DNA of 58,126 nt, from IMG/VR virus record IMGVR_UViG_3300001847_000530, positions 1 through 58,126 of that record; one strand, given 5' to 3'. The position numbers were made by a program, and so were the translations under genes. The stretch's first letter is position 1; each line of letters opens with the position of its first letter. The notes below the pieces were generated by a model that was given only the letters and a program-made list of their open reading frames with translations, was not told the origin of the DNA and did no database searches. Shown here piece by piece: positions 32,820 through 54,287 of this stretch. The DNA is from a virus. Its lineage: Duplodnaviria; Caudoviricetes.

Positions 32820-32976
32820 TCAATTCGACCGCCAGACTTCGGCTACAAGGAGTCCAAACGACCGACACAGGGGGTCCAATCCGCGCAACAGTGCGAGAGG
32901 GGCCGAGAGCAATTTGTTCTTTTTAGAATTGAGCGGCCCCGGACGCTCGCGATCAAATAATCCGCCGGGTTTTTTT
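32820..32976 (+). ncRNA. Candidate structured RNA or leader
   Basis: GC-rich, with nested GCGAG/CTCGC and GGGGCCG/CGGCCCC stems; between late promoter and U-tract. Confidence 0.4.
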
Positions 32977-33329: not shown

Positions 33330-33414
33330 GCCGTAGTGGCTCAGCGGCAACAGCACTGGTTTTGTAAACCAGCGGGGTAACCCTACATCGGTTCGAGTCC
33401 GATCTACGGCTCCA
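33330..33414 (+). tRNA. tRNA-Thr(UGU) with long variable arm
   Basis: GCCGTAG/CTACGGC acceptor, CTGGT-TTTGTAA-ACCAG anticodon arm, TTCGA, CCA. Confidence 0.8.
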
Positions 33415-33419
33415 CTTAA

Positions 33420-33508
33420 GGAAGGGTGGCAGAGCGGTTTAACGTGCTTGTCTTGAAAACAAGAGTGGCTAATCCCCACCGTGAGTTCGAATCTCACCCC
33501 TTCCGCCA
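33420..33508 (+). tRNA. tRNA-Ser(UGA)
   Basis: CTTGT-CTTGAAA-ACAAG, long V-arm, G73, CCA. Confidence 0.92.
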
Positions 33509-33573
33509 TTTACTAACCTAATCATTGGCTCCAATGTGCGTTTGGGCACTGAAATGCCAGTGGAAATTTTTTA

Positions 33574-33649
33574 GGGCCATTAGCTCATTTGGCAGAGCGC
33601 CTGATTTGCATTCAGGAGGTGAACGGTTCGACCCCGTTATGGTCCACCA
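33574..33649 (+). tRNA. tRNA-Ala(UGC)
   Basis: G3:U70, CCTGA-TTTGCAT-TCAGG, CCA. Confidence 0.92.
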
Positions 33650-33653
33650 ATTT

Positions 33654-33728
33654 GCACGGGAAGTCAAACGGTCAGACACCAGTTTGCAAAACTGCTATTA
33701 GCGAGTTCAACTCTCGCACCGTGCTCCA
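33654..33728 (+). tRNA. tRNA-Cys(GCA)
   Basis: CAGT-TTGCAAA-ACTG, U73, CCA; one acceptor mismatch. Confidence 0.8.
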
Positions 33729-33733
33729 TTTTC

Positions 33734-33809
33734 GCGGTAGTAGCTCAATTGGCAGAGCGCCATCCTTCCAAGCTGGATGTTGCAGGTTCGAGCCCTGTCT
33801 GCCGCACCA
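33734..33809 (+). tRNA. tRNA-Gly(UCC)
   Basis: CTTCCAA loop, TTCGA, CCA. Confidence 0.9.
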
Positions 33810-33815
33810 ACTTTC

Positions 33816-33971
33816 TGGTCGAAAGACTGGAAATGGTGGAGGGTGTGAATCCTTCACTCCCCTAGAGAGAAACAGTCAATCTCTTTAAATCGACTGCCGA
33901 ACCGAAGCGCGTGCCTTCGGTGTATGTCACGGGCGCAGACGAACAGTGAGGCTTGCATATCCTCGGCGCCA
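33816..33971 (+). ncRNA. Unclassified structured RNA ending in GCCA
   Basis: GGTCGA/TCGACT, GACTG/CAGTC, CCGAAG/CTTCGG and GAGG/CCTC stems. Confidence 0.5.
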
Positions 33972-34016
33972 CTAATTTTGAACCTGAAAAAGTTGTAGCG
34001 CATAAATACTTGTACT

Positions 34017-34526
34017 ATGTCATTTTCTAACGAACAGGTTTTTTGCGTCAATAGCACCTATGCGCGTCATCTCATTAAGAAGCGCTTAATAGTTCAGAAG
34101 CTAATTCCATACGAGTGTTGCGAATGTAAGAATAGCGGTGAATGGAATACTAAGCCATTAGTTCTTCAGTTAGATCATAGCAATGGAATTAACAACGATA
34201 ATCGTTTAGAAAATCTTAGATTTATTTGCCCAAACTGCCATTCTCAGACTGAAACGTATGCTGGAAAAAATAGCGCTGGTGTTAGACATCGCAAGATAAA
34301 ACCTAATTTTAGAGCAGAAAAAAGAAAAAGAGATAAAGATTTACTAGAAAAGATAAAAGCAGATCCATCGATTAGATTTGGCGAATGGGGATGGAAAACA
34401 CGATTTGCTGAAAAGCTTAGCATTTCGCCCCAGAAAGTCGAAAAATGGATTGCTAGAGTAGATCACGATTTTTACATCACGGTAGCTCAATTTGGTAGAG
34501 CTGCGGCCTCCAAATCCGCAGGTTAA
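34017..34526 (+). CDS. HNH homing-type endonuclease inserted in tRNA array
   Basis: C..C, LQLDH.NG...DNRLENLRFICPNCH; AT-rich; stop lies inside tRNA-Trp. Confidence 0.85.
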   Translation: MSFSNEQVFCVNSTYARHLIKKRLIVQKLIPYECCECKNSGEWNTKPLVLQLDHSNGINNDNRLENLRFICPNCHSQTETYAGKNSAGVRHRKIKPNFRAEKRKRDKDLLEKIKADPSIRFGEWGWKTRFAEKLSISPQKVEKWIARVDHDFYITVAQFGRAAASKSAG

Positions 34527-34552
34527 AGGTTCAAGTCCTTTCCGTGATGCCA
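34476..34552 (+). tRNA. tRNA-Trp(CCA)
   Basis: ATCACGG/CCGTGAT, CTCCAAA loop, G73, CCA. Confidence 0.88.
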
Positions 34553-34560
34553 CTTTATGT

Positions 34561-34687
34561 AGGGATGCTGGTACCAGAAGGCGAGATGCTGCGCGCGCGA
34601 GGCAGTCAAAGCCGATGGTTTGAAGTTGTGCCTAGTGAGTGGCGTACCACTCTAGAGTTGCAGGTTAGAGTCCTGCCGTCCCTGCCA
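34561..34687 (+). ncRNA. 127-nt tRNA mimic with acceptor and T arms but no canonical D or anticodon arm
   Basis: AGGGATG/CGTCCCT-GCCA; GCAGG-TTAGAGT-CCTGC; two long internal hairpins. Confidence 0.65.
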
Positions 34688-34692
34688 AATTT

Positions 34693-34767
34693 GCCGCCAT
34701 CGTCTAACGGTTAGGACAAATCCCTTTCACGGATGCAATCGGGGTTCAATTCCCCGTGGTGGTACCA
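34693..34767 (+). tRNA. tRNA-Glu(UUC)
   Basis: CTTTCAC loop, CCA. Confidence 0.88.
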
Positions 34768-34785
34768 CTATACATATTTTGTCAA

Positions 34786-34863
34786 CGGCGCGTAGCACAG
34801 TCTGGCTAGTGCGCTACATTTGGGATGTAGAAGTCGCAGGTTCAAATCCTGCCGCGCCGACCA
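34786..34863 (+). tRNA. tRNA-Pro(UGG)
   Basis: C1:G72, CTACA-TTTGGGA-TGTAG, CCA. Confidence 0.92.
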
Positions 34864-34864
34864 T

Positions 34865-34939
34865 TGACTCATGGTGTAATGGTCAGCACAGCTGACTTTG
34901 ACTCAGCTAGTTGGGGTTCGAGTCCCTGTGAGTCAGCCA
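34865..34939 (+). tRNA. tRNA-Gln(UUG)
   Basis: U1:A72, GCTGA-CTTTGAC-TCAGC, CCA. Confidence 0.92.
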
Positions 34940-34942
34940 CCC

Positions 34943-35019
34943 GTCCTCGTAGCTCAACCGGATAGAGCACCGGTTTTCTAAACCGGTGGTTGTGGGTTCG
35001 ATCCCCGCCGAGGGCGCCA
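34943..35019 (+). tRNA. tRNA-Arg(UCU)
   Basis: CCGGT-TTTCTAA-ACCGG, CCA. Confidence 0.92.
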
Positions 35020-35028
35020 TTATACTTT

Positions 35029-35229
35029 ATGAAAAAGTTACTTATATTGTCAGCGATTGTATTGCTTTTAGGCGGATGTATTTCTATCTGCGAAGATCAT
35101 CCTGCAGTTAGAATATACCGTTCTTATCAGCCGCAGTATATTCATCACGAAGTTGTTCCGATCCGCACTCCTCAGTACATCGGATATCGTGATCGGTTTG
35201 GTACGCTACATCTGTGGCCGGCACAGTAA
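35029..35229 (+). CDS. Small lipoprotein
   Basis: LGGC lipobox. Confidence 0.6.
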   Translation: MKKLLILSAIVLLLGGCISICEDHPAVRIYRSYQPQYIHHEVVPIRTPQYIGYRDRFGTLHLWPAQ

Positions 35230-35231
35230 TC

Positions 35232-35312
35232 GCCCTAGTGTTGAAATGGCAGACAAGACAGTCTTAGAAGCTGTTGCCTCATGGCGTGCAGGTTCAAGTC
35301 CTGCCTAGGGCA
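35232..35312 (+). tRNA. tRNA-Leu(UAG), no encoded CCA
   Basis: GCCCTAG/CTAGGGC, CTTAGAA loop, V-arm. Confidence 0.88.
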
Positions 35313-35313
35313 C

Positions 35314-35764: not shown

Positions 35765-36136
35765 GGGCGCGTTCTGGATTCTACTTAAATGTGGCCTTCT
35801 GGGAAGCAAGCATGGATACTACGATCCATTCAACATCGTGGAAAAACACAAACGGCATTTCTAATATGCTCAAGAGCCTCTTCGCTGTCAATCAGCAGGA
35901 AGCTCAACTCGCAGCCTAAGCAGCTGTGAATGAAGTCGACGCGATACTCGCTGATGTCGACTTCATCATCTAGCGAGTCTGCTTGTTCGGTTGGTGACGT
36001 TGCGAACAAGCAGTACTCAATGTCACGTACTTCATCGTTCTGCGCAGAGTTCGATGTCGCATTACCTGCGATAAGCTTGTAGAAACTTAGCGGAAAATAC
36101 TTAAGCACAGGGGTTCGACTCCCCTCGCGTCCACCA
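35765..36136 (+). ncRNA. ssrA: tmRNA; tag ORF 35854-35919 GISNMLKSLFAVNQQEAQLAA
   Basis: GGGCGCG/CGCGTCC-ACCA with G3:U70, GGATTC, T-arm GGTTCGACTCC, tag ending LAA. Confidence 0.92.
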
Positions 36137-36215
36137 ATTTCTTCTCGGTGACAGTATCCGAGAGAACAACCGAAGCCCTCACACGGCAGAAGTTCCTAAC
36201 AAGAAAGACAACACA

Positions 36216-36404
36216 ATGTACGCATCCATCACGGTTGCATACCTTGCGATTGCCGGTCTGTTGAAACTCGCACACGAGGACTACAGCAAACTGGCCAAGC
36301 GCTCGCCAGAGCGTGGAAGCAGTAAGGTAAAGCGTGTTATGTCCAAAGTTGGATCCGAGGCTAAGAAAGCTTGGATCTCAATGGGGCAATACCCGCTTCA
36401 GTAA
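36216..36404 (+). CDS. Small hypothetical protein
   Basis: Hydrophobic N-terminus; followed by terminator-like hairpin. Confidence 0.45.
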   Translation: MYASITVAYLAIAGLLKLAHEDYSKLAKRSPERGSSKVKRVMSKVGSEAKKAWISMGQYPLQ

Positions 36405-36412
36405 GCAAACAC

Positions 36413-36450
36413 AACTCTGCCATGCTTGTGGTGGCAGAGTTCCTTTTGTT
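36413..36450 (+). terminator. Rho-independent terminator
   Basis: AACTCTGCCA/TGGCAGAGTT stem then CCTTTT. Confidence 0.6.
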
Positions 36451-36519
36451 CTAAATTTTTCCATTTTCCTGTTTACACGGACCCGCCGCCGTGTATTGTT
36501 CTATATGTTCTTTTGATAA

Positions 36520-36775
36520 CAACATTTTTGTGACGGAATAAACCATTCTAATGGGGTTAACGTATGCACCACGTGAAGAACGTGGTGCAGTTTCCGAATC
36601 GATTAGTAAGTAAGGTACTATGCTGAGGCTTAGGTTGGCCAACCGAAGCTACCAGAGGTATGGCTCGTAAGCTTGAATATAGAATGACAAGCGAGTCATT
36701 ACGGTGCGGCGGCATCAATTGTCTGAATAACAGAAACTCGAAGCTGGAATGGAGGTAATCATTAATCCTCCCAAT
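36520..36775 (+). ncRNA. Candidate structured RNA A
   Basis: After TTTACA/TATTGT promoter and boxA-like TGTTCTTT; TGCACCACGT/ACGTGGTGCA stem; terminal GGAGG/CCTCC-CA. Confidence 0.45.
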
Positions 36776-36788
36776 TTATTTTCATCAT

Positions 36789-36855
36789 ACTCGACTAGGC
36801 GAGTCTAAACAGAAGTATAGGCCTAGTGCGGCGGTACAGAAATGTGCCGCGACTT
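36789..36855 (+). ncRNA. Pistol-ribozyme-like RNA
   Basis: P1 ACTCG/CGAGT; loop ACTAGG pairs with CCTAGT; TAAACAG; P2 AAGT/ACTT; GCG; P3 with GAAA loop. Confidence 0.75.
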
Positions 36856-37006
36856 GCCACGCCTTGGTTCCGCTGTGCACCGGATTAAATTCTGATTAAA
36901 ATCCAGTTACCAAGAAAAATAAGTACGAGACAAAGGCTGCGGTTTCAATAGCAGAAACGCCGCATATAAATCTCGTTGCTCAAGCTATGAGTTAGCGTGG
37001 CACCCA
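36855..37006 (+). ncRNA. Candidate structured RNA B
   Basis: TGCCACGC/GCGTGGCA closing stem; CTTGG/CCAAG, ACGAGA/TCTCGT and TGCGG/CCGCA arms. Confidence 0.55.
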
Positions 37007-37028
37007 ATTTTGTTCTTTACATTAGAAT

Positions 37029-37252
37029 TTCTTGGTGTGGCCTTTAACCAGCAAATGCGCTGTTAGCGGTCGTATTCATCGAAGTCAGCAACATCAGAAT
37101 AGCAGGACAGCTATGATGCCAAGTGGCTAATTACGACGGATGGTATGCGAAACCCGGATGTTAAGACCCGCTGTTAACTAAAATGGTCTCATCCAGTGAC
37201 AGTAATGTCTAGCAGAGCCCAGGACAACATCGATGAGCAGCCACATCAAGAA
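37029..37252 (+). ncRNA. Candidate structured RNA C
   Basis: 13-bp closing stem TTCTTGGTGTGGC/GCCACATCAAGAA; preceded by boxA-like TGTTCTTTAC. Confidence 0.55.
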
Positions 37253-37253
37253 T

Positions 37254-37437
37254 GTAGACGACACGTGGAAATACACCTCATCAGCATGAAGATGGGGAAG
37301 CTTCCTCTCGGTCTGAACCTCGCGCGGTAGAAAGATTCCGCGGCGTTTGCTAGCAAATGATGCGTACTATCGACAAATGATGGCGAGTACCCGCAATACG
37401 AGGCTCTGGAAGTTCGCAAAGACCGTTCCACATCTAC
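37254..37437 (+). ncRNA. Candidate structured RNA D
   Basis: Nested GTAGA/TCTAC, GTGGAA/TTCCAC, CGGTCT/AGACCG and CCTCG/CGAGG stems. Confidence 0.55.
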
Positions 37438-37459
37438 CTGATCTATAGATACAAACGTT

Positions 37460-38968
37460 ATGACAAAACAAACCAACAAACAAACCGCACGCAGATTGCT
37501 CTCTAGCATTCTGCTTTCTGTGTTTACAGCTACTGCTCTAGCATTACCTAGCACAGATCCTACTAACCTGCAAACCTCGGCCGGCGTGACCGTTCTGCAA
37601 GCAACGAATGCGCTGACGATCACTGCACCAAACCGTGCTGTCCTGAACTGGACAAACTTCGGATCCGGAACGGACACGATTTCGCGAAGTGACTTGCTGA
37701 CATATCAGCTGCCTGATGCAAAGTCATCAGTACTAAATATCGTCACTGGTTCTGCACAATCGATGATCGATGGATATATTTCCTCAAATGGAAAAGTTTA
37801 TATCATCAATCCTAACGGCATTGTCATCGGAGCAAATTCGCGCTTTGATGTGGCCTCGCTAGCACTATCTGCTAGCGATAATCCAGTAGCTGCTCAGCTG
37901 CAATACCTGCGTGATGGTACTGTTCCATCCGAGGTTGGAATTCGGAGCGCATTTGGCTCGCTGACAGTCAATAGCTCAGCAATGATTCTAAGCCCAAACA
38001 TCACGCTTCTTGCCAAGAATGTATATGTCGGTGCTGCGATGTTCGGTGGTGCAACCACAATCAATGCTGACGGAGATGTCCAGCTTGGTGTGCAAGGCGG
38101 CTCGACGGTCTTCGGAGGTCTGACAATCACCAATGCCAGCGGAAATACAGTGCTGAGCATGGCAGGATCGACAGTCAATTCAACTGGTCCAATCGTTGCA
38201 ACCAGTGATCGTGGTAATGTTCTCAGTCAGGCAGGATCGCGCCTTGTGACTAAGAATCTAACTGTTACCTCGAATTACGGTGCTGTCAATCTTGGTGCTG
38301 ACGGTGCTCTGATTACAACCGCAACCGCTCCAACAGTCACGATTGCTCTTGATGGTCTGACACCTAATCCATCAGTTGGTGGATCTTCGACTGGCGCATT
38401 TGCTGTGACATCACCCGCATCTTTCAAGGTTGATGGAGTTACTGGTGTCAGCAATTCGCCATTCAGCTTTACGTCTGGCGGAGATCTTACACTGGGTGCT
38501 GTTCACCTTGATGTGACCAGTGCAACGACGTTTGCAGGAAAGACAGTCACAGATACCACAAACGGAATCTTCGTTTACGGCCCAGTGCTGTTTTCTGCTA
38601 CTGGTGGAGATATTTCAATCACCAAAGGCAATCATAGCTTTGGTCCTGTCAGCGTATTTGCCAACGGAAATGCGACAGTTTATGAAGCTGCTGCTCTCAA
38701 TTTGAATACTGTCAATGTCAAGAATCTTGTGCTGAAAACAGGAGAATACTTTTTTCAGACACCGACAACAGCAAGTCTCTTAGCCAATTCTTTCAATTTG
38801 ACTGCCTCAGGTGCCGTTTCATTGTTTACTGGAAACATCGCCTCGGGTCTTACGATCAGTGCCGGTTCATCAAGTGTAGATCTGAGCAGACTCAGTATTG
38901 CCACGAATTTGAACGGCATCGCACCAACAGTGACAACGACCGGTGCTGTTGGACAACCTAATCCTTAA
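37460..38968 (+). CDS. Secreted filamentous-haemagglutinin (TPS) N-terminal-domain beta-helix protein
   Basis: Signal peptide; A.LNW..F, VLN.V.G...S.IDG, NG.VYIINPNGI. Confidence 0.85.
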   Translation: MTKQTNKQTARRLLSSILLSVFTATALALPSTDPTNLQTSAGVTVLQATNALTITAPNRAVLNWTNFGSGTDTISRSDLLTYQLPDAKSSVLNIVTGSAQSMIDGYISSNGKVYIINPNGIVIGANSRFDVASLALSASDNPVAAQLQYLRDGTVPSEVGIRSAFGSLTVNSSAMILSPNITLLAKNVYVGAAMFGGATTINADGDVQLGVQGGSTVFGGLTITNASGNTVLSMAGSTVNSTGPIVATSDRGNVLSQAGSRLVTKNLTVTSNYGAVNLGADGALITTATAPTVTIALDGLTPNPSVGGSSTGAFAVTSPASFKVDGVTGVSNSPFSFTSGGDLTLGAVHLDVTSATTFAGKTVTDTTNGIFVYGPVLFSATGGDISITKGNHSFGPVSVFANGNATVYEAAALNLNTVNVKNLVLKTGEYFFQTPTTASLLANSFNLTASGAVSLFTGNIASGLTISAGSSSVDLSRLSIATNLNGIAPTVTTTGAVGQPNP

Positions 38969-38981
38969 TAAATAGTTAAGT

Positions 38982-39644
38982 ATGAAAAAGCTAATCGCAT
39001 TGTTTGCTGCGCTATCTTCGATTGCAGCAGCTCAAGTCACAACCGAACTGACAGCAGGTTACCGCTCGAAGGATTTTTCTTTCGGTAAGGTAGCATCTAC
39101 TGTCAGCGCTTATACCACTACTGCTGATATTCGCATCAATAGTTTTCGCCTGGGTACAAGCGTGCAGGATCAACTGACACTCAAGAGCTCAAAGTTGTAT
39201 CAGCTCGATTTGATCGGCGGATACAAGTTTTTCTCATCTCTTGCTGATGTCGAGTTTGGAACGAGGTATGTCACTAAGGGCATCTTTGCCAAGTACGATA
39301 TGAAGAATCACTGGCGCCCATTCGTGGAAGTCAGCAAAGGTATCTTCAGTGTCCGCAGTCAGATGGATCTTGAGGCTAAGACATCGAACATCGAGGGCGC
39401 GCTGAAACGTGCTCTTCCGCTCGGTGCTGGTTTCAAGTTCACGCCATCTGTTTATGTCGGATATACCGATGCGAATGACGCACTGCCACACACCATCAAG
39501 GAAATCAAGTACACCAACGTGTACTACGGTGGTTCTGGCGATGTCTCATGGAAGTGGGCTACAGCTGGTCTGTACACGATCCATACCAAGATCGACAAGA
39601 AATACACCAACGGCTATCGTGCTGGTGTTGCTCTGAAGTTTTGA
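38982..39644 (+). CDS. Small outer-membrane beta-barrel protein
   Basis: Signal peptide, amphipathic strands, C-terminal YRAGVALKF. Confidence 0.7.
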   Translation: MKKLIALFAALSSIAAAQVTTELTAGYRSKDFSFGKVASTVSAYTTTADIRINSFRLGTSVQDQLTLKSSKLYQLDLIGGYKFFSSLADVEFGTRYVTKGIFAKYDMKNHWRPFVEVSKGIFSVRSQMDLEAKTSNIEGALKRALPLGAGFKFTPSVYVGYTDANDALPHTIKEIKYTNVYYGGSGDVSWKWATAGLYTIHTKIDKKYTNGYRAGVALKF

Positions 39645-51087: not shown

Positions 51088-52230
51088 ATGAATAGTAAAG
51101 CCGCTATTGCGATCATAGCCATGGCGGCTTTTTTGTCTGCGCACGGAGCGGTGGGTAAGATGGATACTGTCACTGGCCCAACTCAGATCGCGCGCGGCAA
51201 GGAGAAGATCGAAGGCAAGAAAGATACAGATGTCGAGATGAATGACTCTGTCGAGACGCTGAAAGCGCGTGTCGGTATTACCTTTGAGGACAACACGAAG
51301 ATGCAGGTGACAGAATTCTCAAAGCTCAAGATCGATGAATTCGTGTACGATCCCAAGTCAGGTAAAGGTAGTCTTTCTATCAAAGCAGCATTTGGCACAG
51401 TTCGGTATGCATCAGGAGCAATCGCAAAGAATAGCCGCGAGAACGTCAAGGTGCAGACACCGACAGCAAAGGTATCAGTACGCGGCACAGACTTCTCGAT
51501 GACTGTCTCGGAGGATGGCAAAAGCTTGATCGTGCTACTGCCATCGATTCCAAAAGCATCAGGTTTGCCACCGGTTGTCGGTGAGATTACTGTCTCAAAT
51601 CTGGGCGGTTCTGTGCTCATGAATCAGGCATATCAGGCCACATTTGTATCCTCGCAGAACACAGCACCCACACCACCCGTGGTACTCGACTTTCAGGACG
51701 AATCTAAGATCAATAATATGCTGATCGTGGAAACACCGCGTCAGGTTACTCAGGCAGTCAAAGAACAAAAGAAAGAAAAGCAACAAACACAAAGCACCGA
51801 TGATGAAGACAATAAGCCCAAAAAGAAAGACACAAAGACTGCAATTACTCAATCTGATACGCCGCCGGCTACTGCAACAGTGGCTGCACAACAAGCAACA
51901 ACGACTGACAATACTCAGCCAGTGACCACAGATCTGAACATCAATGCTATTCAGCCGCAGGTGCTACAGAATGTAGCAACCGTAATTGAAAAGGCTCAGC
52001 CGCCAGCTCCTCCACCAAATTTGGTTGTTGGTACTGCTGTAGTCAATACTGGGTGGGCATCTGATGGCACGAATGCCACACTGCTGATAGACAATAATGG
52101 CAATGTGGTGCAGTATTCGACAAAGGCGAACGCCAATCTCTTGATAGATATTACGACAGATGAAGGCACTAAATCATACCCGCTGAATTTCGGTGATAAA
52201 CTAAAGGTGAACATCACGCAAAAGAAATAA
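51088..52230 (+). CDS. Exported FecR-domain protein
   Basis: F.D.T...V.E.S.L.ID, V.TPTA..SVRGTDF. Confidence 0.85.
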   Translation: MNSKAAIAIIAMAAFLSAHGAVGKMDTVTGPTQIARGKEKIEGKKDTDVEMNDSVETLKARVGITFEDNTKMQVTEFSKLKIDEFVYDPKSGKGSLSIKAAFGTVRYASGAIAKNSRENVKVQTPTAKVSVRGTDFSMTVSEDGKSLIVLLPSIPKASGLPPVVGEITVSNLGGSVLMNQAYQATFVSSQNTAPTPPVVLDFQDESKINNMLIVETPRQVTQAVKEQKKEKQQTQSTDDEDNKPKKKDTKTAITQSDTPPATATVAAQQATTTDNTQPVTTDLNINAIQPQVLQNVATVIEKAQPPAPPPNLVVGTAVVNTGWASDGTNATLLIDNNGNVVQYSTKANANLLIDITTDEGTKSYPLNFGDKLKVNITQKK

Positions 52231-54287
52231 TGAAGAAGCATCAAATCAAGATCATCGGTATCGGACTAATCATGCTGGCAGTAGCTGTTGCGCTGCGTAT
52301 CTGGGATCCATATCCGATCGAGGTGCTGCGTCTCAAAGGATTAGACTTTTATCAGCGTCAGCAACAGAAAGAAGTATCCAAGAACATTGCTGTCATTGAG
52401 ATCGATGAGGCTGCTCTCGAAAAGAATGGTCAGTGGCCCTGGCGCCGTGATGTGCTGGGTGCTGCTGTCAGCAAGGCGATGGACGCTGGTGCAAGTGCAG
52501 TGGTGCTACCTATCATCTTTGCAGAGCCTGATCGTCTGGGCGGTGATAAGGAATTCATTCAGGTGATCGAGAAGGTACCCGTAATCATTGCTCAATCTGC
52601 TGCTCAGAAAGGCAAAGGCGAGCCAGTGCCGCGCGGGTTAGCAACAATTGGCGGAAAGGCAGAAGACTGGCTGTTCGATTATCCAGCGGCAATAGGACCA
52701 ACTAGTGACATTGGTAAATCGGCTGCAGGCGTGGGCATGCTGCTGACTGCTCCTGAGCTTGATGGGGTGGTGCGTCGTTTACCGCTGATCGTGCAAGTCA
52801 AAGGCGAGAAGTATCCCACATTGCCTCTGGAGGTGCTACGCGTCTTTGGTGGAGAGGCATCCAATCAGGCCAAGGCGAATGAGGGAGGCATCGTTGCTGT
52901 GCGCGTTGCTGGAATTCCGCCGATCAGGACAGATGCAAATGCTCGCGTCTGGCTGAATATGAAGTACACCTTTGAGAGCATCTCTTACACAAAGAATGAT
53001 TGGAGTGCTGTCAAAGGAAAGATCGCAGTCATCGCGCCAACAGCAGAAGGTCTGGCCAATACTGTAGCGACACCTCTGGGTACCACATATGGATACGAGG
53101 TCAATCTGCAAGCACTGCAGATGCTGATCGATGATGCGCGTCTGGAACGCCCAGCGGAAGCTGATCTGTACGAGCTTGCAGCTGGTGTGCTGCTGTGTCT
53201 GATTGCAATCGTGACAATCTGTTACCTGAACTACATCGCTGCGGGTATCCTGTTCGTGATTATGCTAGTCGCACCAGTTCAAACTGGATTTTACCTGTTC
53301 GCGAAGCATCAATCACTCTACGATTTTACCTGGGTGTGCGGCGCGCTGATCGGATCCTGGGGTGCAGCATTGTTCTGGCGGTTCGTGATGGAATTCAAAC
53401 TGAAGCAGCAGATCAAGAAGCAATTTGGTACATACCTTTCGCCTGCCATGGTTGAAAAACTGCAACAGAATCCTGACCTACTCAAACTTGGCGGCGATGA
53501 AAGAGAACTTTCCATTATGTTCACAGATGTTCGTGGCTTCACCGCCATATCAGAACACTATGGTAAGAATGTTCAAGGGCTGACGCAGATCATGAATCGC
53601 TACATGACTGCAATGACTCAGGCGATTCTTGACAACAATGGAACGCTTGACAAATATATCGGTGATGCTCAGATGGCATTTTGGAATGCTCCACTTGATG
53701 ACAAAGAACATGCCAAGAACGCTGTGAAGACCGCGATGAAAATGTTGAAGGACTTGGATGCATTCAATGCCGAAATAACCAAAGAAGGCGTACCAGCATT
53801 TGGTATGGGGCTTGGCATCAACACAGCAACGGTTGTTGTTGGTAATATGGGCAGCACACAAAGATTTGACTATACCTGTCTTGGAGACGGAGTAAATCTG
53901 GCATCAAGACTTGAAGGTCAAAGCAAGCCATATGGCGTAAGAATTGTCCTTGGTCAAGACACAGCAAGATATGTGCAACGCGATTATCAACTGTTTGAAT
54001 TGGACAAGATTGCTGTCAAAGGAAAGAAAGAAGGAGTAAGAATATTCACTGCGCTTGAAAATGAACTTGGTGTCGCAAAAGCACACGTCTTGGTATCTCA
54101 CCAAATGTTCCTGAATGGTTACAGAGAAAAAAATTGGGATAACGCCATTTATCACGCAAAGGAACTTATGAAATACAACAAGGAACTAAAAAAGTATTAC
54201 GAGATGATGATCGAGCGCATCGAGTACCTCCGTGACAATGACCCAGGCGAAAAGTGGGATGGCGTCTACAGAGCGACCAGCAAGTAA
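52230..54287 (+). CDS. CHASE2-domain class III adenylate cyclase
   Basis: IDE..L...GQWPW.R, DGVVRR; TM helices; FTDVRGFT, KYIGDA, GD.VNLASRLE. Confidence 0.92.
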   Translation: MKKHQIKIIGIGLIMLAVAVALRIWDPYPIEVLRLKGLDFYQRQQQKEVSKNIAVIEIDEAALEKNGQWPWRRDVLGAAVSKAMDAGASAVVLPIIFAEPDRLGGDKEFIQVIEKVPVIIAQSAAQKGKGEPVPRGLATIGGKAEDWLFDYPAAIGPTSDIGKSAAGVGMLLTAPELDGVVRRLPLIVQVKGEKYPTLPLEVLRVFGGEASNQAKANEGGIVAVRVAGIPPIRTDANARVWLNMKYTFESISYTKNDWSAVKGKIAVIAPTAEGLANTVATPLGTTYGYEVNLQALQMLIDDARLERPAEADLYELAAGVLLCLIAIVTICYLNYIAAGILFVIMLVAPVQTGFYLFAKHQSLYDFTWVCGALIGSWGAALFWRFVMEFKLKQQIKKQFGTYLSPAMVEKLQQNPDLLKLGGDERELSIMFTDVRGFTAISEHYGKNVQGLTQIMNRYMTAMTQAILDNNGTLDKYIGDAQMAFWNAPLDDKEHAKNAVKTAMKMLKDLDAFNAEITKEGVPAFGMGLGINTATVVVGNMGSTQRFDYTCLGDGVNLASRLEGQSKPYGVRIVLGQDTARYVQRDYQLFELDKIAVKGKKEGVRIFTALENELGVAKAHVLVSHQMFLNGYREKNWDNAIYHAKELMKYNKELKKYYEMMIERIEYLRDNDPGEKWDGVYRATSK

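Follow-up and report, generated by a model that had tools for sequence, protein, structure and literature searches.

Two stable RNAs of unassigned function, rnaC and rnaD (species 1 and 2), are annotated in the record of phage T4 at the end of its tRNA cluster, and the large conserved RNA structures GOLLD and ROOL are also found near phage tRNA genes. In cyanophages, manA RNAs often lie beside tRNAs. The parts of the published accounts available here describe manA RNAs as riboswitch candidates of T4-like cyanophages and marine bacteria (PMC2864571, PMC9964418) that occur in potential 5′ untranslated regions (PMC2864571), and report pistol ribozymes near phage genes (PMC6154101). We describe here a viral locus at positions 36472–37437 of the IMG/VR record IMGVR_UViG_3300001847_000530 (58,126 bases, analysed over its whole length and referred to below as the window), in which a manA-like RNA and a pistol self-cleaving ribozyme are followed by three further structured modules, C, D1 and D2 (the last two together being D). 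A preliminary description, made from the sequence of the window, took the locus for a set of structured RNAs placed back to back in one operon and transcribed from a promoter of their own, and covariation within the modules and conservation of the promoter hexamers bear this out. The explanation that we favour, with a probability of roughly 0.68, is that these approximately 950 bases are an operon of untranslated stable RNAs, transcribed from its own promoter and situated at the distal end of a cluster of tRNA genes and a transfer-messenger RNA (tmRNA) gene, and that its precursor is cut by the pistol ribozyme.

The stretch 36472–37437 is non-coding. The longest open reading frame (ORF) on its + strand has 44 codons (37196–37330), and none of the longer ones on the − strand (63 and 53 codons, and one of 143 that runs antisense to the neighbouring gene) is conserved, in keeping with the earlier remark that there is no credible ORF here. 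Eight homologous regions contain no ORF of at least 30 codons with a conserved position, and the sole peptide-like stretch common to the relatives lies on hairpin P8 of D1, in which substitutions preserve base pairs and alter amino acids. The stretch opens with a sigma-70-like promoter, TTTACA-N16-TATTGT (36472–36499, + strand), that matches the consensus at 9 of 12 positions. A scan for the consensus by itself is at chance level (3 sites versus 2.6 expected), and what supports the proposed promoter is that its hexamers are conserved, despite a variable spacer, in five of six loci compared: they read TTTACA/TATGAT in L002 and L003 and ATGTAC/TATGAT in L041 and L043, and are absent from L008. 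A private promoter further along, TTGGTT-N16-TAAATT at 36864–36891, was rejected as it is unconserved in relatives.

When the ligase gene 4 kb downstream was used as a query, 28 viral loci were recovered, seven contigs among them with the non-coding stretch; a locus search with the TPS-domain protein encoded next to the stretch gave no relatives. Two patterns of invariant D1 positions returned the same seven viral contigs together with 16 metagenome stretches and three genome stretches, and a D2 pattern added only the contig of L008. The three genome stretches (L056–L058) and two of the metagenome stretches (L042 and L055) had no nhmmer match to the D profile, and L042 and L055 were also unalignable; all five were dropped as unrelated before any counts were made. 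The D1 set, once duplicates had been removed, consists of 11 distinct sequences, of which ten (including the window) are full-length and one, L044, is a copy at a contig end. Every homolog belongs to a single narrow clade of freshwater T4-like phages, with 6–11 distinct sequences per module. Outside this clade, a blastn search of 36100–37600 against 50,697 cultured-phage records gave no match, and a search of 185,579 species genomes with the motif pattern yielded no true match. With the D1 model (R1), no credible match came from Phage C48C1, Acidovorax phage ACP17, three IMG/VR records or 22 further loci, the best scores being 12.5 and 10.7 bits. C, D1 and D2 have no Rfam match at E≤10, and a relaxed-threshold search of 36857–37459 likewise gave nothing credible. 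They are thus well-supported candidates for structured RNA modules without a described family, so that the suggestion of several new non-coding RNA classes stands for these three, and falls for the manA-like RNA and the pistol ribozyme.

The arrangement of the locus is modular. Synteny is constant, with the tRNA array, tmRNA, optional modules, pistol ribozyme, C, tRNA-Met(CAT), D and the TPS gene in this order. The tRNA-Met gene is present between C and D in L002, L005, L010, L041, L043 and L054 and is absent from the window and L044. In L044 the promoter and linker run directly into the pistol ribozyme, with no manA-like module, and in L008 the manA-like module precedes a tRNA and the tmRNA, while D2 occurs alone, 190 nucleotides (nt) 5′ of an OMP-like gene. 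Two extra conserved non-coding modules, E and F, lie between the manA-like RNA and the pistol ribozyme in relatives (L002, 4749–4908; L043, 4717–4870 and 4519–4693; L005, 4894–5063; L008, 4848–4987; L041, 5591–5756), and the window is without both; no Rfam match to them was found at E≤0.05 in L041 or L043.

The first module (36520–36785, + strand) is a structured RNA whose helices H1–H10 span 36533–36771, with a long-range helix, H4, between 36592–36603 and 36736–36749. The Rfam manA model (RF01745) matches 36506–36781 with 32.5 bits (E-value 3e-6 in a 1.5-kb search), which is below its cut-off of 55.2 bits; the scores in four loci are 32.5, 24.9 (L041), 23.7 and 18.1 bits, and none of five records reaches the cut-off. 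Both ends of the model fit, the 5′ block as GUGAC-GGAAUAAAC-hairpin-UAACGU and the 3′ terminal hairpin as GGAGGUAAUCAUUAAUCCUCC with the loop UAAUCAUUAAU. The alignment, however, requires a 109-nt insertion, the columns of the model's pseudoknot are non-canonical and do not form it, and the central helix is replaced by a local hairpin (36565–36589, 7 of 10 pairs changed on both sides) and a different multi-helix domain, so that the consensus structure of a central multi-stem domain and pseudoknot is not found. Since this covarying hairpin contradicts the model's central helix, we regard the first domain as a divergent relative, a manA-like variant, rather than as a member of RF01745. It had been said that the domains could not be matched to RNase P, SRP, 6S, introns or riboswitches, and for this domain the sub-threshold match means that the remark does not fully hold. 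Among six sequences 66 pairs were counted, with 95.2% of cells paired and 22 pairs changed on both sides; none of 500 shuffles matches the covariation score, and slid registers give 29–46% pairing. The fold of 36500–36860 has a z-score of −3.19 against shuffled sequences.

The element previously called pistol-like (36789–36856, + strand) matches the pistol ribozyme model (RF02679) over model positions 1–68 with 52.1 bits, above the Rfam cut-off of 34.5, and the ribozyme is found in eight related loci with 36.9–54.5 bits. The P1 hairpin, the 6-base-pair (bp) pseudoknot between CUAGGC in the P1 loop and GCCUAG, and an 8-bp P3 are all present. Residue roles and the G53-U54 cleavage site are taken from the accessible part of PMC6154101; the equivalents of the catalytic purine-32, G40 and G42 (env25 numbering, with the mapping inferred) are G, G and G, and that of A39 is U. 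From this published site and the linker columns 63–64 of the model, cleavage is predicted between G36851 and A36852. The same G-A dinucleotide is found at the scissile bond in all eight aligned relatives and in the more distant phage record G005. Since the +1 U is paired with U29 in the crystal structure, as given in the portion of PMC6795133 at hand, the +1 A of the G-A variant could pair with the same U.

The record G005 (locus L061), from a more distant T4-like phage, has a pistol ribozyme of 60.5 bits with a G-A linker on its − strand at about 1330–1570. Its pseudoknot, CUAUGC with GCAUAG, differs from that of the window on both sides. This ribozyme lies outside any tRNA cluster and was found in only one of five records searched; directly after it comes a multi-branch domain that closes on itself, about 165 nt long (single-sequence fold, z = −1.95) and upstream of a 260-codon ORF, a layout similar to that of the pistol ribozyme and C. 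Neither a pistol ribozyme nor D1 was found in Phage C48C1 or Acidovorax phage ACP17, the phages with the nearest cultured UvsX.

Module C (36855–37002, + strand) has three arms and is closed by an 8-bp helix (36855–36862 with 36995–37002) that is invariant among eight sequences; it also contains conserved unpaired segments, among them ATAAA at about 36966–36970. In the same number of sequences there are 32 pairs, with 90.3% paired and 18 changed on both sides, a result reached by none of 500 shuffles, and the fold of 36785–37020 has a z-score of −3.31 against shuffles. The pistol ribozyme stands directly 5′ of the closing helix in all eight aligned loci. Because its predicted cut lies 3 nt before that helix, we infer that the ribozyme creates the 5′ end of C. 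The module was also considered as a tRNA-like element, a reading rejected because its 3′ tail is R-CC-N and not CCA and its loops are unlike a T-loop. A TATAAAT sequence within C (36965–36971) could be a late promoter.

Module D1 (37029–37252, + strand; 250.8 bits with model R1) is closed by the helix P1 (37029–37041 with 37240–37252) and contains a hairpin, P2, a long-range helix, P3 (37075–37082 with 37230–37237), the arms P4–P6 and P7a/b, and P8 with a GUAA loop. Its 11 sequences have 53 pairs in ten helices, with 94.6% paired and 18 changed on both sides; no shuffle out of 500 equals this, and slid registers give 24–45%. P1 was tested apart from the other helices because MAFFT misaligned it. 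This helix, 13 bp in the window, covaries, with five different distal sequences forming duplexes of 8–13 bp, and its cognate ends have a mean duplex energy of −17.9 kcal/mol versus −9.9 for non-cognate ends. Two candidate pseudoknots are weak: 37069–37074 with 37132–37137 has one pair changed on both sides, and 37064–37068 with 37169–37173 has one-sided changes only and five unpaired cells. Readings of D1 as RNase P, signal recognition particle or CsrB-like RNA were rejected, since the motifs concerned are paired elsewhere with covariation or are unconserved in L010.

Module D2 (37253–37425, + strand) is built around variable hairpins with two core helices (37299–37305 with 37408–37414, and 37315–37322 with 37399–37406). 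The core covaries in 11 sequences, including the D2-only copy of L008, with 19 pairs, 91.9% paired and six changed on both sides, and again none of 500 shuffles does as well. Of the two alternative helices, GGUCU/AGACC is weakly supported and UGAAC/GUUCR is unsupported. A GGUC/GACC pairing proposed by RNAalifold, which would link D1 with the end of D2, was rejected as it is broken in L010 and competes with covarying local pairing. G-U pairs are frequent (10 of 11, for instance, at D1 columns 49/233 and likewise at D2 columns 57/184) and fit only the + strand, which shows this to be the strand that folds. Compensatory changes are thus present in all four non-ribozyme modules, where slid registers give 20–54% pairing overall, and the self-closing domains proposed earlier are real.

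A short linker recurs in front of the modules. Its first copy, TGTTCTTT (36506–36513, + strand), stands just 3′ of the promoter, and the second, AATTTTGTTCTTT (37006–37018, + strand), occupies the site of tRNA-Met(CAT) in most relatives. TGTTCTTT is found at both 36506 and 37011, and the window has ten copies on both strands versus 2.76 expected; in the relatives the motif lies about 15 nt past the −10 hexamer. Across ten loci (about 178 kb), TTNGTTCTTT has 19 copies on the + strand versus 3 on the − strand, copies that are not independent because the loci are related, and they lie 3′ of the −10 hexamer, of the tmRNA and of C, and 5′ of other modules. The linker is therefore a real, strand-biased and recurrent motif. 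We take its GUUCUUU form to resemble bacterial boxA, and 'boxA-like', the term used for the two copies in the preliminary description, is a fair one for such a motif. Like the boxA of rRNA operons it has a U-rich GUUCUUU core near a promoter, is repeated between structured RNA genes and is biased to the + strand; unlike boxA it precedes nearly every module rather than occurring once or twice per operon. A MotA-box reading of GTTCTTT was rejected for its wrong spacing. We note that three loci also have GTTCTTT in a hairpin loop; this GC-rich hairpin stands about 400 nt 5′ of the first tRNA of the array (window 32913–32922; L002, 680; L054, 628, reverse).

D and the tmRNA are present in RNA libraries. 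In a metatranscriptome of four runs from one study, in which 41–53% of sampled words were present, contigs of at least 99% identity contain D in all four runs and the tmRNA in all four. One contig (X10) spans 36896–37405 and so crosses the C–D junction; the adapter letters at its two ends suggest that a fragment ended at 36896 and at 37405, positions that are not readable as RNA ends. The interval 36484–36895 is represented only by a relative's contig of depth 2.5, and nothing was drawn from this gap. Contig depths (3513.7 for X8 at 37141–37324 versus 103.5 for the TPS contig, and 193.1 for X10 versus about 3) were not used as evidence.

On the explanation favoured here, a single transcript would carry, in order, the manA-like RNA, the pistol ribozyme, C, tRNA-Met (in relatives, and lost here), D1 and D2, and this precursor would be cut into separate folded RNAs. 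Self-cleavage at G36851/A36852 would set the 5′ end of C just ahead of its closing helix; in the relatives, tRNA-processing enzymes would cut at tRNA-Met and so separate C from D, and the U-rich GUUCUUU linker would mark the start of each module. All modules would thus be co-transcribed and discrete RNAs released, C and D perhaps to act in trans.

Several points weigh against this explanation. The homologs are few and related, and some are near-identical; the shuffle controls overstate significance because so few and related sequences were used and their kinship was ignored. The structures of C and of the manA-like module were derived from the same alignments on which both were then tested and their pairs counted. 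The fold of 36857–37459 is no more stable than shuffled sequences (z = −0.41 on the + strand and −1.31 on the − strand), and covariation was therefore relied on. The pistol ribozyme has G-A and not the consensus G-U at its scissile bond, and its P2 helix is weak, with three pairs and a mismatch. In the RNA data, coverage comes from assembled contigs and gives no strand, ends, cleavage or reliable ranking by depth; all four runs belong to one study, and an RNA library can contain DNA. Two further points, the position of D relative to genes and the contigs that run from D2 into the TPS gene, also fit a role as a leader.

Such a role is the alternative that survives best, although we think it unlikely. 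It holds that the whole stretch, or at least D1–D2, is a riboswitch-like or attenuator-like cis-regulatory leader of the TPS and OMP-like genes, with the manA-like RNA as a 5′ sensor, and it would agree with the placing of manA RNAs, as riboswitch candidates, in potential 5′ untranslated regions in the part of PMC2864571 cited above. D or D2 is always just 5′ of a TPS or OMP-like gene: a TPS homolog begins 28–55 nt 3′ of D in eight of ten other loci (L004 has a short ORF only), an OMP-like gene lies within 33 nt 3′ of D in L010, and in L008 the solitary D2 precedes an OMP-like gene. In three of the four RNA runs D2 and the TPS gene lie together on contigs, and D2 has three mutually exclusive helix options, as a possible expression platform would, although there is real covariation in one of them only. 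The leader reading is at odds, however, with the tRNA gene embedded between C and D in most relatives, with the independent recombination of the modules, and with a self-cleaving ribozyme that would sever the manA-like sensor from the parts downstream.

It is weakened further by TATAGATA (37444–37451, + strand), which lies 8 nt 5′ of the ATG of the next gene and forms the right boundary of the RNA stretch. This sequence resembles ATAAATA-N7-8-ATG, which we assume to be a T4-late-promoter-like signal; the relatives have ATAAATA at the matching position between D2 and the ATG, and in the window ATAAATA is followed 7–8 nt on by the opening ATG of an ORF at four other genes (14040, 21538, 34002 and 38968). 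Because this type of signal recurs in the phage at such a distance from other ATGs, it suggests that the TPS gene has a late-promoter-like start of its own between D2 and the ATG. These recurrent ATAAATA signals stand very near start codons and have the appearance of T4-type late promoters.

We consider it improbable that the modules do nothing for the phage and are carried along in the tRNA cluster as selfish or decaying elements, whether mobile RNA cassettes or remnants. The mosaic presence and absence of modules and of tRNA-Met among close relatives would be expected of such elements, as would a distribution as narrow as that found here. However, D1 is 88–91% identical where the flanking ligase protein is 69–75% identical, compensatory changes keep the base pairs of the modules, and D is found in RNA libraries. 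The idea in the preliminary description that about 900 nt here form one very large GOLLD- or ROOL-type RNA gains something from the neighbouring phage tRNA genes, the total size and the many conserved helices, but can be set aside as very improbable, because there is no Rfam match even at E≤10 in 36100–37600, every module closes on itself, a tRNA-Met interrupts the stretch in relatives, modules occur apart from each other (in L008 and L044, as above), and the sole inter-module pairing predicted, the GGUC/GACC one, fails in L010.

Within the operon reading we can offer, tentatively and with the odds against it as a whole, a more specific view, in which the pistol ribozyme and C form a self-processing cassette and D1–D2 represents a new class of phage RNA, large (about 400 nt), pseudoknotted and trans-acting. 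If this were true, the pistol ribozyme would have the biological task of giving a folded non-coding RNA a precisely defined 5′ end, and D1–D2 would not be an mRNA leader but would work in trans while the phage infects its host, perhaps by sequestering a protein as a decoy or sponge, or by forming an RNA-only assembly like those of ROOL and GOLLD. What pistol ribozymes do in nature is still an open question, as it is for manA RNAs, and here one conserved transcription unit with a defined neighbour would hold both. The predicted cut so close to the closing helix of C offers a testable role for the pistol ribozyme in 5′-end maturation of a non-coding RNA. The narrowness of the family, and the hypothetical nature of any function, limit the impact of these findings.

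The window is a fragment of a T4-like phage genome, since it encodes a UvsX-like recombinase, ribonucleotide reductase, PhoH, an ATP-dependent ligase and other genes of this kind, and since its UvsX is closest, among the 50,697 cultured-phage records, to those of Phage C48C1 (63%) and Acidovorax phage ACP17 (61%). The CheckV estimate of completeness for the record is 33%. Upstream of the RNA stretch are ten to eleven tRNA genes (33330–35313) and a phage tmRNA (35765–36136; 84.5 bits, with a tag ending in AQLAA) that is kept in the relatives. A 62-codon ORF 3′ of the tmRNA is followed by a terminator-like hairpin with a T-rich tail (36413–36441, + strand), which ends this upstream unit and forms the left boundary of the RNA stretch; the region of the 62-codon ORF has no homologs in the related loci. 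A tRNA at 33654–33725, with an Rfam match of 42.7 bits and an anticodon loop that by eye reads GCA (Cys), is not in the ARAGORN list. In the relatives' tRNA arrays ARAGORN lists tRNA-like genes whose anticodons have four bases (cctg, ataa), at 1343–1419 in L002 and at 460–536 and 624–713 in L041.

Downstream of the RNA stretch, a secreted TPS-domain protein of 502 residues (37460–38968, + strand; Pfam PF05860, E-value 2.8e-13) is encoded by a gene 47% identical to the gene 3′ of D in L002. It is followed by a conserved OMP-like protein of 220 residues ending in LKF (38982–39644), which is without a Pfam or PHROG family; its homolog in L008 is 44% identical, and that of L010 is 39% identical to the L008 protein. 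Elsewhere in the window, an ORF of 685 codons (52230–54287) combines a CHASE2 sensor domain with an adenylate/guanylate cyclase domain.

When the locus is set beside known systems, its first module shares with manA RNA (RF01745) the T4-like phage setting, the position at the 5′ end of a transcription unit and matching ends, as far as can be judged from the available parts of PMC2864571 and PMC9964418, and differs from it in its sub-threshold scores, insertion, other central domain and lack of the model's pseudoknot. The second agrees with RF02679 in its full-length, above-cut-off match, P1, pseudoknot, P3 and the equivalents of purine-32, G40 and G42, and departs from the consensus in the G-A cleavage site, the U at the A39 equivalent and the weak P2. 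What distinguishes this pistol ribozyme is its place, inside a putative stable-RNA operon and directly 5′ of a closed RNA domain; a limited search of the literature, partly of incomplete texts, found no description of a pistol ribozyme preceding a structured RNA in a tRNA cluster, which does not show that none is in print. A partial parallel is provided by the HDV-like theta ribozymes, which in the accessible part of PMC10879173 are small self-cleaving ribozymes among phage tRNA genes with a proposed role in processing neighbouring RNAs; they are of another class, however, and adjoin tRNAs, whereas the pistol ribozyme here precedes a structured RNA that is not a tRNA. With GOLLD and ROOL the locus shares large conserved structure near phage tRNA genes, and it differs from them in having no Rfam match and in being modular and, in relatives, interrupted by a tRNA. 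The closest precedent for the operon reading is that of rnaC and rnaD, stable RNAs at the distal end of a T4-type tRNA cluster, although these are only 119–139 nt long and have no annotated ribozyme, and an nhmmer search of T4 68000–76000 with the four module profiles gave no matches at E≤10. C, D1 and D2 thus add three structured RNA candidates, from uncultured freshwater T4-like phages, and extend the observation made with rnaC and rnaD of T4.

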